DNA of 64,000 bases from Escherichia coli (lineage in GTDB: Bacteria; Pseudomonadota; Gammaproteobacteria; Enterobacterales; Enterobacteriaceae), in the NCBI RefSeq assembly GCF_024298765.1, contig NZ_CP101210.1; one strand, 5' to 3'. The notes under the pieces are model-generated. The model did no database searches, was not told the DNA's origin, and saw only the letters and a program-made list of their open reading frames with translations. The position numbers were made by a program, and so were the translations under genes. Positions 23,562 through 34,278 of the stretch are shown piece by piece. The first letter of the stretch is position 1, and each line of letters begins with the position of its first letter.

Positions 23562-25040
23562 TTACGCATTCGACCAGCTCTGGATCGAATCCGCATTCCC
23601 CAATTCCCCATGCATCACTTCATACGATTTTTTCAGGATCACATCAGTGTGCTTGGTTAGGTCTTTGAAAATGCCTTTATTCATCGCGTCGTAGCGTTTG
23701 GCGTTGCTCTCAACAGGCATAAAGATATCTTTCACGCGAACCATTTTGTCGACAGCCGTTGCGTAATCCGGGTATAGCCCCAGACCTACCGCCGTATTGA
23801 TCGCTGCCCCCAGACTTGCACAACCATTAATGGCGTTACGGCGTGCCGGAAGGTTGAACACGTCGGCAAAAATCTGCATAAACAGATCGCTGTTCGAACC
23901 GCCGCCAGTAATGATCACATGCTTTGCAAAGTGATTCATTTCATTACACATATTGTCGTAATTGTTCTTCAGCGTCAGCGCCACGCTTTCCAGTATCGAA
24001 CGATATATCCATGCGTAATCCATGCTGGAATCAAAGCCGATCATAATCCCGCGTTTGTATGGTTCCCACGGATTGGTCAGCCAGTCCAGCACCGTCATCA
24101 GCCCATTACAACCAGGTGGCACGCAAGACGCTTTTTTGTTGAGCAAATCTTCCGGTGAAAGATCCTGTGCTTTGGCATCCTGAATTAACGACTCGCCTAA
24201 CATGTCGCGCAGCCAGCTCACCGTCCACATGCCTTTGCGAATACCATAACCTTCATACAGCAATGTTTGCGGAATAGAAGACATAATCGGCCAGTACGCC
24301 ACCGGATCTTTCGGTAGTGCTTTGCCGTTCATCATCAACGCGATATAGGTGCCAAGAGAAATTACCGCCGTTTCATCATCCAGTAACCCGGCTCCCAGAG
24401 CTTCTACCGGTTTATCACTGGTGGTACAAACAACCGGCAGCCCAGCCGGGAAATGTGTCGCCAGCGCGGCTTGACGAGTGATATGCCCAAGAACAGTGCC
24501 CGGCATTTGCACATCAAAAAGCATCTGTCGGGGAATATTAAACTTCTCCATTACCGCGGTATCTTCGCTCCATGCCCAGGTCTTATAATCCACCGGCCAC
24601 TGACCAAAATAGTTGGCGATATTGTCTTTAAACTCGCCGGTTAAGCGATGCGTCAGATAACCCGAAAAAGAGGTGACATATGCCACGTCAGGATTCGTAT
24701 GTTCGTAAGGGCGTGTAACGCGTGCATCCTGCCAGCTAATCAACGGCGCAGCTGGCGTACCATCGGCTTTCAATAGCGCACGGCAGCAACGGATTGAGCC
24801 CAGGCCAATGCCGACAATATCTTCTTTATTCCCGGCAAACTGGCTCATCAAATCGTGACTGGCAAAACATAGTGATGCCCATAAATCATCGTCAGGATGT
24901 TCTGCGGTATCGGCATCTGGCGTGTGCATCGGCTGCAATAAGCCTTTGCCTTCGCAAACCACATTACCTTCCAGATCGTACATCACCACTTTTGTGCTCT
25001 GACTTCCGCCATCAATCCCTATGATGTATTTTTTCGACAT
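23562..25040 (-). CDS. ygcE: FGGY-family carbohydrate kinase
   Basis: 492-aa ORF; N-terminal KYIIGIDGGSQSTK sugar-kinase motif. Confidence 0.88.
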   Translation of the reverse strand: MSKKYIIGIDGGSQSTKVVMYDLEGNVVCEGKGLLQPMHTPDADTAEHPDDDLWASLCFASHDLMSQFAGNKEDIVGIGLGSIRCCRALLKADGTPAAPLISWQDARVTRPYEHTNPDVAYVTSFSGYLTHRLTGEFKDNIANYFGQWPVDYKTWAWSEDTAVMEKFNIPRQMLFDVQMPGTVLGHITRQAALATHFPAGLPVVCTTSDKPVEALGAGLLDDETAVISLGTYIALMMNGKALPKDPVAYWPIMSSIPQTLLYEGYGIRKGMWTVSWLRDMLGESLIQDAKAQDLSPEDLLNKKASCVPPGCNGLMTVLDWLTNPWEPYKRGIMIGFDSSMDYAWIYRSILESVALTLKNNYDNMCNEMNHFAKHVIITGGGSNSDLFMQIFADVFNLPARRNAINGCASLGAAINTAVGLGLYPDYATAVDKMVRVKDIFMPVESNAKRYDAMNKGIFKDLTKHTDVILKKSYEVMHGELGNADSIQSWSNA

Positions 25041-25066
25041 GATTTTTCTCCTGTAATTTTCCTGGC

Positions 25067-26344
25067 TTACTTGCTGCTAGCCATTGCGGGGGCGCTATCA
25101 GCAGTACGAATTTTTTGGAACAGCAAAAAGGTAAAGATGATCACCATGGCAAGCGCCGCCATACCCATTAGCCACATGTTGCGGTAGGCTTCTGCAGCGG
25201 GCAGGGTGTCTTGCCAGTAGCCGATAATCGGGTAAACGAAGACATCCGGCAGGAATCCAATCACCGAACAAATACCTACCGTGGTGCCCATAATGTAAGA
25301 CGGTGTTCTCGCTTCGCCAGGGCAGGCCCAGTACAGCCCGCGTGAGGCGTAACAGGTGAATCCCAGCAGTAAAATCAGGCCAATCCCCATCGCGACCGAT
25401 TGCGGGTTAGAGTTCGTGACGAGCAGGGCAGTTAACGCCAGCAAGCCGAGTACGGAAAGGATTTGGATCACGCGGGTAGGGGATTTCACTTTGCTGTAGG
25501 TGGTGATAATGCCACCAAGTGGGCCGCACAGTGCGCGGAAGATTTTGTTGATCACAATCCCCATGTAGCTCGCCGCCACCAGCGACATGCCGTACATTTC
25601 GGTCAGATAGTTGGTGGAGTAACTCAGAATGGCGTAGATAGTGAAGACACCAAAAATCACCATGCTGCAATACCAGGTGGTACTGATACGCAAAACGGCC
25701 AGGATATCGCTAAGCTGGAATGACTGTTTTTCTTCGTTATTGGTACTGCGCAGGTTGTTGTTATCGCTAACAAAAAACCAGCACAGAATCCCCAACAAGA
25801 TGTAAACCACACTGTAGATAATAATGACTGTTTTCAGGCTGGCGCTGTCATCCGGCGCAAAGCGAGAAAAGACCCACATGGTAAACACCGCCAGCGACAT
25901 TACACCGACGCCGCGCAGCCCTTCCATCCAGCCCATAATTTTCCCTTGCTCACTATGATCGCCCAGCAATGAGGCGGCTTTAATCGACACCGACCACAGC
26001 ATTAAAATCGTCGTTATCGCAAAGGCGACCTGAATACAGAGCATTACCCACAGCGGTGGATACGTTGCCATTAACAGACCCAGTAATCCGGTAATGATCA
26101 TCGCGGAAGTAATCATTTTGCGGTGTGAAAATTTATCGGCAATAACGCCGCTGGGGGCATAAAGAATAATAGCTGCAATACCAAAGGTACTCATTATTAA
26201 ACCTATCTCGGTATTGCTGAATCCCATAAATTTCGCCATGGGAATTTGATAAATATAACGTAAATAAGCCAGGTCGAAACTAACGCCGCCGCTAAAACTA
26301 ATTATCGCGAGGGTTATCCAACGGCGATATGAGTTGTGTTGCAT
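25067..26344 (-). CDS. yqcE: MFS transporter
   Basis: 425-aa hydrophobic ORF immediately upstream of ygcE on the same strand (27-bp gap); likely an operon. Confidence 0.85.
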   Translation of the reverse strand: MQHNSYRRWITLAIISFSGGVSFDLAYLRYIYQIPMAKFMGFSNTEIGLIMSTFGIAAIILYAPSGVIADKFSHRKMITSAMIITGLLGLLMATYPPLWVMLCIQVAFAITTILMLWSVSIKAASLLGDHSEQGKIMGWMEGLRGVGVMSLAVFTMWVFSRFAPDDSASLKTVIIIYSVVYILLGILCWFFVSDNNNLRSTNNEEKQSFQLSDILAVLRISTTWYCSMVIFGVFTIYAILSYSTNYLTEMYGMSLVAASYMGIVINKIFRALCGPLGGIITTYSKVKSPTRVIQILSVLGLLALTALLVTNSNPQSVAMGIGLILLLGFTCYASRGLYWACPGEARTPSYIMGTTVGICSVIGFLPDVFVYPIIGYWQDTLPAAEAYRNMWLMGMAALAMVIIFTFLLFQKIRTADSAPAMASSK

Positions 26345-26465
26345 ATCGTATTCCCATTTGTAATAGACAAAAAAAAGAGAAAAGTAAGCCGCCCTTTCAG
26401 GTGGATTACTTTTCTCAGGTCTCTAGTAATTGCAATAAGAAATAACATGGAAAGCAGAGGTGTTG

Positions 26466-32739: not shown

Positions 32740-32755
32740 AAATTATCCTTATTAT

Positions 32756-33016
32756 TTATCCAAAACGGTAGGTGATGCCGAATCCGGAAGGCGGATAGCG
32801 CCACTGTTGTAGTGTTGATTCGTCGCACAGCAAACGGCAGGTGCCACACTCCAGGCAGCCGCGATAATCAACGCGTAAGTCACCTTCCGGTGTGAGCGAA
32901 AAAAGACCAGCCGGACAAGCGTTAATCAACCGTTGTACCGTCTGACGCTCAACGGAGTCAGCCGGTACAATGTGCGGCGCATCGGCAACGCGCCAGAGAT
33001 TACGGGCTACAGACAT
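32756..33016 (-). CDS. ygcO: Ferredoxin-like protein (FixX family)
   Basis: Track ORF 32756-33052 trimmed to MSVARNLW (86 aa); cysteine motif CLECGTCRLLC. Confidence 0.8.
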   Translation of the reverse strand: MSVARNLWRVADAPHIVPADSVERQTVQRLINACPAGLFSLTPEGDLRVDYRGCLECGTCRLLCDESTLQQWRYPPSGFGITYRFG

Positions 33017-34278
33017 CGCAGACTCCTGATAACATCGCCCGCCAGATGCCACAGGCCGTGACGACGTAAATGACGCCAGAATAACTGGCGCAGCGGTGGA
33101 ACAGGTTTATCACCCTGATCCCATAAATCGCGGGAAATATCCTGCATTAACGCAGGCCACGCACGGTACCATCCAGGGCGTTGCAAAAGCGCCGGAACAT
33201 GCTGATAACGTTGTAGAACATCCCATAGCAGGCTGCGCTCGACGTTGTGATGATAAAGCGCAAACAGATTTTGCGGCTCGCGGTGCTGGCAGGCGCTTAT
33301 CAGCGTTTGTGCCGCCGCCTGCGTGCCAGTCAGCGCCATATCCATGCCGCGCACGGAAATTCCGGTATTGACGCAACTGCGCAACGCATCGCCCAGCAGC
33401 AGCCAGCCGTTACCGGCGTATTGCACCGGCATACTGTGCAAGCCACCTTCTGGCACCAGATGCGCACCATACTCCAGTGATTCCGTGTTTTTGATAAGCG
33501 GGCGCACTGCCGGATGCGTTTTAAAGCGAGCCAGCAGCTCGCTTGCCGGAACACGACTTTGCGTAAGGGAAGAGAGCGGGCAAACAATCCCTAACGAGAG
33601 CGTTTGTTGATTAGTATAAAGAAATGCGCCGCCGGGTAAGTCATCACAGATCCCGCCGCTGAACAGCAACGCTGCGCCTTCGTTATTCTCCAGATGAAAA
33701 CGTTCTTCAATAGCGGATGTTTCCAGCGACAGCACTTCTTTGATCCCCAACGCCATCGCTTCGCCAGCAGGACGAGTCACTAACCCGTGACGTTCAGCCA
33801 GGACGCTGTTGGCACCTTCTGCCAGCACCACATAACGGGCGCGAAGAATATCGTCACCACAAATGACACCACACACCCTGCCGTTTTCTTCATACAGTGC
33901 ATCTACCGTCGCACCGGGGATGCATTCGACACCTTCTTTTTCGGCTTCGGCAACCAGCCACGGATCGAATCGTGCACGTAATACACTCCAGGATTCACCG
34001 CCGGGCTGTAAGCTGGAAAACGTCGTTGCGCCATCTGGCGTTAACAGAGAAAGACTTTCGTGAGTGATGCGTCGTTCAAGGGGCGCGGTCAGGTGAAATT
34101 GTGGGAGGAGTTCCGCGAGCGCATGGGTGTATAGCCGCCCGCCGGAAAGATTTTTGCTGCCGGGAATTTCCGCTCGTTCCACTAACAAAACGGATAAACC
34201 CGCTCGCGCGCAGCGTAACGCGCAAGCGGTGCCAGCAATTCCGGCACCGATAATAATAATGTCGCAGTCGTCTTCCAT
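33007..34278 (-). CDS. ygcN: FAD-dependent oxidoreductase (FixC / ETF-quinone oxidoreductase-like)
   Basis: Track ORF trimmed to MEDDCDIIIIGAGIAG (423 aa); FAD dinucleotide-binding motif. Confidence 0.85.
   Translation of the reverse strand: MEDDCDIIIIGAGIAGTACALRCARAGLSVLLVERAEIPGSKNLSGGRLYTHALAELLPQFHLTAPLERRITHESLSLLTPDGATTFSSLQPGGESWSVLRARFDPWLVAEAEKEGVECIPGATVDALYEENGRVCGVICGDDILRARYVVLAEGANSVLAERHGLVTRPAGEAMALGIKEVLSLETSAIEERFHLENNEGAALLFSGGICDDLPGGAFLYTNQQTLSLGIVCPLSSLTQSRVPASELLARFKTHPAVRPLIKNTESLEYGAHLVPEGGLHSMPVQYAGNGWLLLGDALRSCVNTGISVRGMDMALTGTQAAAQTLISACQHREPQNLFALYHHNVERSLLWDVLQRYQHVPALLQRPGWYRAWPALMQDISRDLWDQGDKPVPPLRQLFWRHLRRHGLWHLAGDVIRSLRCL

Follow-up and report, generated by a model that had tools for sequence, protein, structure and literature searches.

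We examined the ygc locus of Escherichia coli, which occupies positions 23562 to 34278 of the stretch of contig NZ_CP101210.1 analyzed here (64 kb; the window, to which all coordinates refer). The locus comprises ten intact open reading frames (ORFs), with boundaries exactly as drawn in an earlier note on this DNA. Several E. coli chromosomes match the segment at 100% identity, and in them the RefSeq gene names are ygcE, yqcE, ygcW, ygcU, ygcS, ygcR, ygcQ, ygcP, ygcO, and ygcN. Across 5,426 complete E. coli genomes, it was detected at a coverage of at least 80% in 5,060 (~93%), always on the chromosome and never on a plasmid. The genes form three transcription units: the divergent yqcE-ygcE (minus strand) and ygcWUSRQ (plus strand), together with ygcNOP (minus strand). 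GC content ranged from 0.42 to 0.57 across the cluster and was indistinct from that of the flanks, giving no base-composition sign of horizontal transfer. Along the window, the genes are as follows.

23562..25040, minus strand: ygcE, FGGY-family kinase, 492 amino acids (aa), second gene of the yqcE-ygcE operon
25067..26344, minus strand: yqcE, MFS transporter, 425 aa, with its own leader RNA copy upstream
26663..27448, plus strand: ygcW, KduD-like short-chain dehydrogenase (SDR), 261 aa
27518..28972, plus strand: ygcU, PCMH/VAO-type flavoprotein resembling alkyl-dihydroxyacetone phosphate synthase (AGPS), 484 aa, the proposed key enzyme
28994..30403, plus strand: ygcS, second MFS transporter, 469 aa
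30381..31160, plus strand: ygcR, divergent electron transfer flavoprotein (ETF) beta-subunit homologue, 259 aa
31157..32017, plus strand: ygcQ, divergent ETF alpha-subunit homologue, 286 aa
32164..32739, minus strand: ygcP, GlpP-family RNA-binding antiterminator, 191 aa
32756..33016, minus strand: ygcO, FixX-like ferredoxin, 86 aa
33007..34278, minus strand: ygcN, FixC/YdiS-like flavin adenine dinucleotide (FAD) oxidoreductase, 423 aa

The families named for these products in the earlier note (FGGY kinase, two MFS transporters, SDR, PCMH-type FAD enzyme, ETF beta and alpha, FixC-like, FixX-like, and GlpP-like proteins) all held at the superfamily level. None of the ten proteins reached an NCBIfam equivalog cut-off, and the names KduD, xylulokinase, GlcD, and FixA/B are therefore not transferable. 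The literature, searched by gene name, by AGPS/BCCT/FGGY combinations, and for etherases and betaine lipids, assigned no function to the ygc genes. In enterohemorrhagic E. coli, ygcU was tested as a D-serine deaminase and excluded. The only published phenotype is a mazEF-dependent death phenotype of ygcR (PMC2646832), which is unrelated to metabolism and gives no biochemical clue. A mention of "ygcO" in a review of the nitrogen-related phosphotransferase system (PTS-Ntr) proved to be a misprint for ycgO.

Judged from its sequence, YgcU is specifically AGPS-like and not a GlcD-type 2-hydroxyacid dehydrogenase. Its best matches in the PDB were the mammalian and Dictyostelium alkyl-dihydroxyacetone phosphate (alkyl-DHAP) synthases (2e-40 by phmmer, 8e-56 by profile), which outranked glycolate oxidase, LctD, D-lactate dehydrogenase, and D-2-hydroxyglutarate dehydrogenase. 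A Foldseek search with an AlphaFold model of YgcU returned AGPS for all of the top 32 matches; this model came from a shallow alignment (mean predicted confidence, pLDDT, of 68) and served for fold ranking, not for pocket analysis. YgcU orthologues carry PF01565 and PF02913, the FAD_binding_4 plus FAD-oxidase_C architecture. The AGPS catalytic residues R419, Y578, and H615-617 align to YgcU R262, Y398, and H438-440, which were invariant in 12 orthologues from several phyla; AGPS mutants R419H and Y578F are both held in the PDB. Where GlcD and the 2-hydroxyacid dehydrogenases have (S/G)EHG(I/V)G, YgcU has VHHHGIG and thus lacks the GlcD-type His/His/Glu metal site, and it scored 144 bits on the NCBIfam glcD model against a cut-off of 568. 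YgcU also lacks the N-terminal domain of AGPS (~190 residues), beginning at the equivalent of AGPS residue ~160 to 190, and its residues ~273 to 344 could not be aligned with AGPS 428 to 522, the segment that lines the lipid tunnel. Both features fit a small soluble substrate. Across Bacillota, Desulfobacterota, SAR324, and Actinomycetes, YgcU was unusually conserved (65 to 76% identity). The generic FAD oxidase of the earlier note thus gives way to a protein for which AGPS is nearest by sequence, profile, and Foldseek, with the catalytic Arg, Tyr, and HHH aligned. An enzyme of this kind does not require net electron flow from substrate to ETF.

The kinase and dehydrogenase encoded beside YgcU are likewise assignable to family. 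The translation of ygcE contains IGIDGGSQSTK, which fits the N-terminal GIDxG motif, and its orthologues carry PF00370 (FGGY_N) and PF02782 (FGGY_C). The best PDB match of YgcE was the autoinducer-2 (AI-2) kinase LsrK (4.5e-30), and the xylulokinase and AI-2 kinase models of NCBIfam each gave 143 bits, far under their cut-offs. YgcW carries the SDR motifs TGxxxGxG, NNAG, and YxxxK, scored 351 bits on the KduD model against a cut-off of 369, and shares 64 to 82% identity with its counterparts in other phyla. From these motifs YgcW is a classical SDR, not demonstrably KduD. YqcE, presumed to be an importer, gave weak matches alone (NCBIfam galactonate-transporter and PgtP-family models). YgcS scored below cut-off on the aromatic-acid symporter (183 bits), sugar porter (146 bits), and organic-cation transporter (137 bits) families, and it may export or import a released substituent. 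In Erwiniaceae, ygcS has been relocated to a separate operon with genes for Fae-like (formaldehyde-activating-enzyme-like), aldo-keto reductase (AKR), and succinate-semialdehyde dehydrogenase proteins.

The products of ygcR, ygcQ, ygcN, and ygcO are real, though divergent, ETF and FixC/FixX homologues. YgcR scored 46 bits on the NCBIfam ETF-beta model and matched Paracoccus ETF-beta in the PDB (3.9e-11), with PF01012 in its orthologues. YgcQ scored 76 bits on an NCBIfam model, a value that, like that of YgcR, is far under the cut-off, and matched ETF-alpha chains at 1e-22 to 1e-18, and YgcQ/YgcR orthologues carry PF00766 and PF01012 (the ETF alpha FAD-binding domain and ETF folds). At the flavin-contact positions of YgcQ, SR is kept, GQTGK is replaced by GISGH, and GISGAIQH by GASGAAAL; FAD binding is plausible but uncertain. 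YgcN has an N-terminal GAGIAG dinucleotide-binding motif and scored 381 bits on PRK10015 and 366 bits on FixC in NCBIfam, both below cut-off, and is presumed to be an ETF:quinone oxidoreductase. YgcO scored 84 bits on the FixX model against a cut-off of 166, and its translation contains cysteines in the arrangement CPAG...CLECGTC...C.

To place these proteins in a wider context, we compared gene neighborhoods across 80 orthologous genome loci, each covering ±10 kb. YgcW, YgcE, and YgcU were encoded in essentially all 80 loci, with ygcE beside ygcW/ygcU in 68 loci across phyla, and the GlpP-like gene was present in most. A cassette of SDR, FGGY kinase, AGPS-like flavoprotein, GlpP-like protein, leader RNA, and transporter recurred in Enterobacterales, Bacillota, Desulfobacterota, SAR324, and Actinomycetes. 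In contrast, ygcR and ygcQ were missing from 17 loci with full flanks, and ygcN and ygcO were found only alongside them; in Enterobacterales, all four genes were either present together or missing together. ETF genes occurred in most Enterobacterales and in anaerobes. None lay within ±10 kb in Erwinia, Pantoea, Izhakiella, one Serratia, Halobacillus, Thalassobacillus, Virgibacillus, Alkalihalobacillus, Saccharopolyspora, or SAR324. In the ETF-less clusters of Erwinia, Pantoea, Halobacillus, Virgibacillus, Thalassobacillus, Saccharopolyspora, and SAR324, YgcW, YgcE, and YgcU nevertheless retained 65 to 84% identity. The clusters of aerobic halophiles hold a regulator, the SDR, the kinase, YgcU, a transporter, and nothing further, which implies that the SDR, kinase, and YgcU must suffice to reach central metabolism.

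Evolutionary rates divided the genes along the same line. In pairwise comparisons with five relatives, the ratio of nonsynonymous to synonymous substitution rates (dN/dS) was 0.01 to 0.06 for ygcE, yqcE, ygcW, ygcU, and ygcP (ygcE, 0.02 to 0.03; ygcW, 0.01 to 0.03; ygcP, 0.01 to 0.05) and 0.06 to 0.29 for ygcR, ygcQ, ygcO, and ygcN (ygcR, 0.12 to 0.27; ygcQ, 0.17 to 0.29). The dN of the ETF, FixX, and FixC genes was 5 to 10 times that of the adjoining core genes (window 30381-34278; loci L006-L045). Between E. coli strains, ygcR and ygcQ were 88% identical where ygcU was 99% identical. The absence of the module from many loci, together with its higher dN/dS, indicates that the electron-transfer module is real and selected but accessory and less constrained. 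The co-inherited ETF/ETF-quinone oxidoreductase/ferredoxin set described in the earlier note is therefore upheld; its standing there as the defining feature of the cluster is not, because the core is kept at such identity in lineages without ETF within 10 kb.

In anaerobe loci, the ETF genes are directly followed by a gene for a second FAD oxidase, which carries an SEHGVG motif and is nearest to LctD (loci L002, L051-L055, L059-L061, L063-L065, L069, L077, L078, and L084). In five of the anaerobe loci, a second ETF beta gene follows the second oxidase, and four of these five also have a second ETF alpha gene, whose product in L063 is ~400 aa long.

The regulatory region shared by the two divergent operons contains paired RNA and DNA elements, as follows.

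26369..26432, minus strand: leader RNA of yqcE-ygcE, an antiterminator stem AUUACU...AGUAAU competing with an intrinsic terminator, then U8
26466..26481, unstranded: CRP-like site TGTGAGAGTAATCACG, one mismatch to TGTGA-N6-TCACA
26523..26538, unstranded: perfect CRP consensus site TGTGATTACGATCACA, with 41.5 nt between its center and the start of the ygcW leader motif
26573..26638, plus strand: leader RNA of ygcWUSRQ, a 5'-GUUACC-AGAGAUAAUGAGAAAG-GUAAC antiterminator overlapping a 19-bp terminator hairpin, then U9

A terminator scan placed intrinsic terminators 25 to 30 nt upstream of ygcW and yqcE, and the ygcW leader ends 25 nt before the ygcW start codon. The leader consensus, 64 to 66 nt long, reads 5'-GUUAC-YAGAG-N3-4-GAGAAAR-GUAAC-UUCC...GGAAG...GCUUUUCUC-U8. 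The 3' two-thirds of the element is a strong intrinsic terminator, and the 5' GUUAC pairs with the GUAAC of the terminator's 5' arm to give a weak antiterminator with a near-invariant 15-nt loop. Positions G10, G12, and GAG18-20 of the leader are invariant. For the ygcW leader, the terminator folded at −35.9 kcal/mol (z = −7.0) and the antiterminator alone at −6.7 kcal/mol, with a score of 74.5 bits on the covariance model of the element (R1). The yqcE leader scored 62 bits (E = 1.9e-10) and folded at −22.3 kcal/mol. In an alignment of 23 sequences, with 500 shuffles per helix, 99.3% of cells in the antiterminator helix were paired and compensatory changes occurred in 4 of its 6 pairs; for the terminator helix, the corresponding values were 95.7% and 5 of 11 pairs. 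No shuffle (0/500) reached the covariation score of either helix, and alignment column 24 covaried with its partners in both. The pairing percentages are somewhat favored by the choice of the seed with a regular expression; independent R1 matches and slid-partner controls argue that the pairing is not an artifact of that choice.

Within the window, R1 detected exactly two full-length copies of the leader, and blastn against complete E. coli genomes placed copies at a median of 2 and a maximum of 4 places per genome. Every ygcW orthologue that co-occurs with YgcP has the leader upstream, in hosts ranging from E. coli to Halobacillus, Sporomusa, and Saccharopolyspora. Outside the seed, R1 matched upstream of yqcE in Enterobacterales, and in other phyla its matches preceded ygcU, genes for BCCT and MFS transporters, and Opu-type ABC operons; yqcE-like MFS genes lie behind the same leader in two Firmicute loci (L077 and L084). 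As a separate observation, in two metagenome-assembled genomes of Bacillota (L071, 8456-9877; L072, 6997-13948), the leader stands before an operon encoding an Opu-type ABC system, a non-pyrrolysine (non-Pyl) MttB-family methyltransferase, a PanB-like protein, and a proline-racemase-like protein. Searches of the window and of three Firmicute loci gave no Rfam family that matched the leader. A metagenome scan with the exact leader pattern yielded 82 stretches, of which all 73 that were interpretable (73/73) precede an Enterobacterales ygcW or yqcE, and revealed no new regulon members. No leader motif was found upstream of ygcN.

YgcP is the candidate reader of this RNA. It matched PDB entry 3KTS, which has the glycerol-3-phosphate (G3P) antiterminator fold (G3P_antiterm), at 8.5e-28 over residues 11 to 184; its orthologues carry PF04309, and its presence tracks that of the leader motif across loci. 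We propose from these correspondences that YgcP reads both leader RNAs. In Bacillus subtilis, GlpP together with G3P disrupts terminators in 5' untranslated regions (PMC9604022). YgcP, which the earlier note had mentioned as a side hint, would on this evidence be a GlpP-type regulator of a conserved leader RNA switch before both operons.

The spacer between yqcE and ygcW (318 bp) holds two of just four CRP-like sites in the 64 kb. The distance from the center of TGTGAGAGTAATCACG to the start of the yqcE leader motif is likewise 41.5 nt, a spacing that suggests a class II promoter. The TGTGATTACGATCACA site is conserved upstream in Enterobacterales loci. Previous studies reported that yqcE-ygcE is activated by CRP (PMC8085971) and ranked the CRP site in the yqcE-ygcW spacer among the top CRP targets predicted by PhyloScan (PMC1794230).

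Clues to the substrate came from genes linked to the cassette in other lineages. Outside Enterobacterales, the transporters linked to the leader are BCCT carriers and OpuC/OsmF-type ABC systems, and the best NCBIfam models for the BCCT carriers were those for glycine-betaine uptake and for the carnitine/butyrobetaine antiporter. Taken together, the regulon transporters belong to the glycine-betaine, carnitine, and choline classes. Recurrent neighbors include uninterrupted (non-pyrrolysine) MttB-family methyltransferases with corrinoid and pterin-binding proteins, and also a set of betaine-aldehyde-dehydrogenase (BADH)-like aldehyde dehydrogenase (ALDH), zinc-dependent alcohol dehydrogenase (Zn-ADH), and aspartase-like lyase. 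These neighbors suggest an onium alcohol or acid as the released group. The ADH/ALDH/aspartase set would suit homoserine betaine, and the BADH/MttB set choline plus glyoxylate; these fits point to deacylated betaine lipids. One deacylated betaine lipid, glyceryl-carboxyhydroxymethylcholine (GCC), occurs free in nature and has been isolated (PMC10362313).

Four other substrate classes were considered and rejected. Hexuronate and aldonate sugar acids do not fit the transporters of other phyla, and no dehydratase or aldolase is present. Plain D-2-hydroxyacids were set aside for the missing EHG site of YgcU, and 2,3-dihydroxypropanesulfonate for the betaine-type transporters and methyltransferase neighbors, which it does not fit, and for the absence of sulfite-handling genes from the loci. 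Free trimethylammonio-propanediol releasing trimethylamine was discarded because the neighboring MttB homologues are uninterrupted and non-pyrrolysine, which favors a quaternary-amine substrate over trimethylamine.

A further set of recurrent neighbors, in the ETF-less clusters of Erwiniaceae and SAR324, comprises succinate-semialdehyde dehydrogenase, an aldo-keto reductase, and a formaldehyde-activating-enzyme homologue. The Fae homologue (TIGR03126, 140 bits against a cut-off of 118) occurs with the AKR and an aldehyde dehydrogenase in L034, L039, and L048 (Erwiniaceae-type) and in L050 (SAR324), that is, in ETF-less clusters of two unrelated lineages; the aldehyde dehydrogenase of L039 is of the succinate-semialdehyde type, and that of L050 is a 218-aa fragment. 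L046 and L049 have the reductase and aldehyde dehydrogenase without the Fae homologue.

Tentatively, and with a confidence that stops somewhat short of an even balance, we interpret ygc as an island for the regulated catabolism of a small, polar compound resembling glycerol, with cleavage by the AGPS-like YgcU and an accessory ETF chain. The substrate would be glycerol carrying a substituent X on C1. YgcE would phosphorylate the free primary hydroxyl and YgcW would oxidize C2, in either order, and the product, X-CH2-CO-CH2-OPO3, would be a 1-substituted DHAP, the compound class handled by AGPS. YgcU, using the flavin-N5 chemistry of AGPS, would then expel X, add water, and release DHAP into glycolysis. 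By analogy with GlpP, the phosphorylated intermediate, a G3P analogue, may activate YgcP to stabilize the weak antiterminator hairpin and allow read-through. YgcRQ and YgcNO would connect the flavin of YgcU with the quinone pool. We view them as an accessory module that would hold the flavin oxidized, or re-oxidize it after adventitious reduction, when O2 is lacking, and that would not carry the main flux. A redox-neutral YgcU served by a re-oxidation module explains both the absence of the module in aerobes and its lower constraint. The phosphorylated polyol or glycerol-ether-type substrate hinted at in the earlier note agrees with the 1-substituted glycerol of this model. X would most likely be an ether-linked or onium betaine group, with glyceryl-trimethylhomoserine and glyceryl-carboxyhydroxymethylcholine as leading candidates, and E. 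coli would take the glycerol moiety alone. In its most specific form, the proposal would describe the first catabolic pathway with AGPS-type chemistry in the cleavage direction, acting on betaine-lipid head groups (glyceryl-trimethylhomoserine from the diacylglyceryl lipid DGTS and GCC from its counterpart DGCC), with YgcU releasing DHAP plus betaine and a GlpP-class RNA switch sensing the phosphorylated intermediate; we consider this full version unlikely as it stands. The identity of X is the weakest step of the interpretation as a whole.

Several considerations weigh against the cleavage model. Alkoxides are poor leaving groups. The invariant YgcU motif GGHSSHSY has no counterpart in AGPS and, with the missing N-terminal domain and the unaligned residues ~273 to 344, may mean that YgcU chemistry differs from that of AGPS; the YgcU structure model is also mediocre (pLDDT 68). 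E. coli has MFS transporters, not BCCT or Opu systems, and its cluster contains no gene for handling the released group. The betaine-lipid idea rests on gene neighborhoods in a minority of loci, and the ETF genes of loci scored as ETF-less could lie beyond ±10 kb. The literature searched contains no biochemical or genetic evidence for any step of the pathway. Finally, the ETF genes of anaerobe loci always lie directly after ygcU, an arrangement that mirrors the LctBCD lactate dehydrogenase/ETF complex, whose subunits match YgcU, YgcR, and YgcQ in the PDB. This strict adjacency fits a true dehydrogenase at least as well as a redox-neutral enzyme, and it leads to the model of the earlier note. 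In that model, YgcE and YgcW would supply a phosphorylated polyol, a ketose phosphate, or a hydroxy compound, YgcU would act on it as a true dehydrogenase, and the two electrons would pass obligatorily via YgcRQ and YgcNO to quinone, with O2 or a housekeeping acceptor in place of ETF in the ETF-less aerobes. The co-inheritance of ygcR, ygcQ, ygcN, and ygcO as a block also favors it, as does the purifying selection on all four genes (dN/dS <0.3, no stop codons), and a precedent exists in Brucella erythritol catabolism, in which an FGGY kinase is followed by an FAD dehydrogenase. However, an obligatory ETF route is difficult to reconcile with core enzymes that remain 65 to 84% identical in lineages without nearby ETF genes and with a module that evolves 5 to 10 times faster than that core. 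In addition, YgcU has the AGPS catalytic set, not the His/Glu metal site of ETF-linked 2-hydroxyacid dehydrogenases, and the AGPS reaction is itself redox-neutral overall. PMC3509576 is listed as a review covering flavoenzymes of this type. We therefore regard the dehydrogenase model as possible but doubtful, and a redox-neutral YgcU is slightly favored over a true dehydrogenase.

The electrons could also run in the opposite direction, as has been proposed for fixABCX and carnitine reduction in E. coli: YgcNO and YgcRQ would feed electrons to YgcU for reductive removal of the substituent from an alpha-substituted ketone, providing an anaerobic electron sink. In favor of this variant, the families nearest to YgcN and YgcO are FixC/YdiS and FixX, ETF genes are found mainly in anaerobes and facultative anaerobes, and the LctD-like dehydrogenase of anaerobe loci, with its own ETF pair, could supply the electrons. 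Nevertheless, ETF-less aerobes keep a near-identical YgcU, which argues that the core reaction does not depend on an electron donor, and the product would be acetol phosphate, for which we infer no obvious metabolic route and no matching gene in the cluster; this variant is improbable. A sugar-acid or pentulose pathway, with a KduD-type YgcW, a galactonate-type transporter YqcE, a pentulose kinase YgcE, and a GlcD-like 2-hydroxyacid dehydrogenase YgcU, would follow from the nearest family models (KduD at 351 bits against 369, D-galactonate transporter for YqcE, xylulokinase for YgcE). Every one of these scores is under its curated cut-off, though, and YgcU lacks the EHG motif; enzymes of 65 to 80% identity are tied by the same leader to BCCT/Opu betaine-type transporters in other phyla, and no locus contains a dehydratase or aldolase. 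We thus give this pathway slightly less credence still. That the cluster is a decaying or cryptic remnant with no present function in E. coli would accord with the literature searched, which holds the mazEF-death report for ygcR (PMC2646832) and no metabolic phenotype or function. Such decay is very hard to square with ten intact ORFs, retention in ~93% of complete genomes, dN/dS of 0.01 to 0.3 for every gene, and conservation of both leaders and CRP sites, and we judge it highly improbable.

The surroundings of the cluster, in the order eno, ygcG, queE, CRISPR array, ygc cluster, queD, cysJIH, hok, cas3-cas2, and CRISPR array, include two CRISPR arrays.

22408-22925: CRISPR array of 9 repeats, plus degenerate repeats at 23376-23512 close to ygcE
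48626-49876: CRISPR array of 21 repeats, 14.3 kb from ygcN, with queD, cysJIH, the hok gene, and the cas operon between

The earlier note described both arrays as flanking the cluster. This is accurate on the ygcE side, where repeats come within 50 bp of the gene, but not on the other, where the array is 14.3 kb from ygcN. The degenerate stretch at 23376-23512 consists of three CRISPR-like repeats (70 to 93% mutual identity, spacing 49 and 61 nt), ~450 bp past the 9-repeat array, with the ygcE stop codon 50 bp away; these repeats appear to be a decayed second CRISPR array. The queuosine-precursor genes queE (21397-22068) and queD (~34356-34718) bracket the CRISPR array and ygc cluster, and the two genes (gene clusters c12 and c10) also flank the cluster in ~20 further Enterobacterales loci. 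The ygc block looks like an old insertion between the functionally linked queE and queD. In the convergent gap between ygcQ and ygcP (32065-32147, minus strand), a sub-threshold match to naRNA4, a REP-derived nucleoid-associated RNA (REP, repetitive extragenic palindrome), scored 29.5 bits against a gathering score of 59.5 and is probably a REP element. In the annotation of one genome with 100% identity to the window across the ygc segment, a gene for a Hok/Gef-family toxin lies between cysH and cas3 (~39620-39772), cas3 is flagged as frameshifted (~39967-42667), and ygcG (TPM domain) and a small neighboring ORF (20351-21380) are annotated as frameshifted pseudogenes; the hok and cas3 coordinates were transferred from that annotation by adding 8561.

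The ygc genes are one of the larger function-unknown blocks in the best-studied bacterium. The present analysis supplies an order of enzymes (kinase, SDR, AGPS-like lyase or hydrolase), a regulator-RNA pair, and a candidate substrate class, which makes the function directly testable. The AGPS-like identity of YgcU, the cross-phylum cassette, the link to betaine-type transporters, and the GlpP-class leader RNA appear to be undescribed in the resources searched. If the cleavage model is correct, ygc would represent the first bacterial catabolic use of AGPS chemistry. It would also allow glyceryl ethers and the head groups of betaine lipids to be turned over, a process to which the literature searched assigned no bacterial pathway, and its control element would be a new antiterminator RNA motif with a wide distribution. 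In the betaine-lipid version of the model, the head groups of algal, fungal, and bacterial betaine lipids would be consumed by E. coli and many anaerobes, with ETF/FixCX serving anoxic flavin re-oxidation. If the dehydrogenase model is correct, ygc would instead give E. coli a distinct, third ETF-dependent dehydrogenase system.

Among known systems, the peroxisomal ether-lipid enzyme AGPS (PDB 4BBY and 2UUU) is the best sequence and fold match of YgcU, sharing the PCMH FAD domain and the catalytic Arg419, Tyr578, and His615-617, and the ygc kinase and C2-dehydrogenase would make the DHAP-type substrate that AGPS needs. YgcU differs in lacking the ~190-residue N-terminal domain and in being encoded in a CRP-dependent catabolic operon beside ETF genes, and it is proposed to cleave or hydrolyze a polar substituent rather than to synthesize an alkyl ether. 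In lignin beta-ether cleavage by LigDEFG and in the MurNAc-6-P etherase MurQ, an SDR, or a kinase plus ring opening, places a carbonyl beside the ether carbon, which allows C-O cleavage. The resemblance of ygc to these systems is in logic only, since their cleavage enzymes are unrelated (glutathione transferases and a SIS-domain lyase).

On the regulatory side, YgcP belongs to the GlpP family, as does the B. subtilis regulator of glpD, glpFK, and glpTQ, and its presumed targets are likewise 5'-untranslated-region terminators just downstream of promoters (PMC9604022). A phosphorylated three-carbon ligand is plausible for YgcP, as for GlpP. In contrast to GlpP, the ygc system is Gram-negative, with another regulon and probably another ligand, and its leader element (GUUAC-YAGAG-N-GAGAAAA-GUAAC overlapping the terminator) is absent from Rfam. 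With respect to electron transfer, Acetobacterium woodii LctBCD (PDB 7QH2) is a GlcD-family FAD enzyme that forms a complex with EtfAB and is encoded beside it; PDB searches with YgcU, YgcR, and YgcQ matched subunits of LctBCD, and LctD is the nearest relative of the second oxidase of anaerobe loci. Unlike LctD, YgcU has no EHG-type site, the ETF is dispensable in many orthologous clusters, and the FixCX-like proteins of E. coli point to quinone and not to NAD/ferredoxin. The four-protein architecture of ygcRQNO is that of fixABCX and ydiQRST, with YgcN scoring 366 to 381 bits on FixC/PRK10015 and YgcO matching FixX. YgcR and YgcQ, however, are far more divergent (33 and 62 bits on the FixA and FixB models), and the partner of the ygc module is an AGPS-like PCMH flavoprotein rather than an acyl-CoA dehydrogenase.

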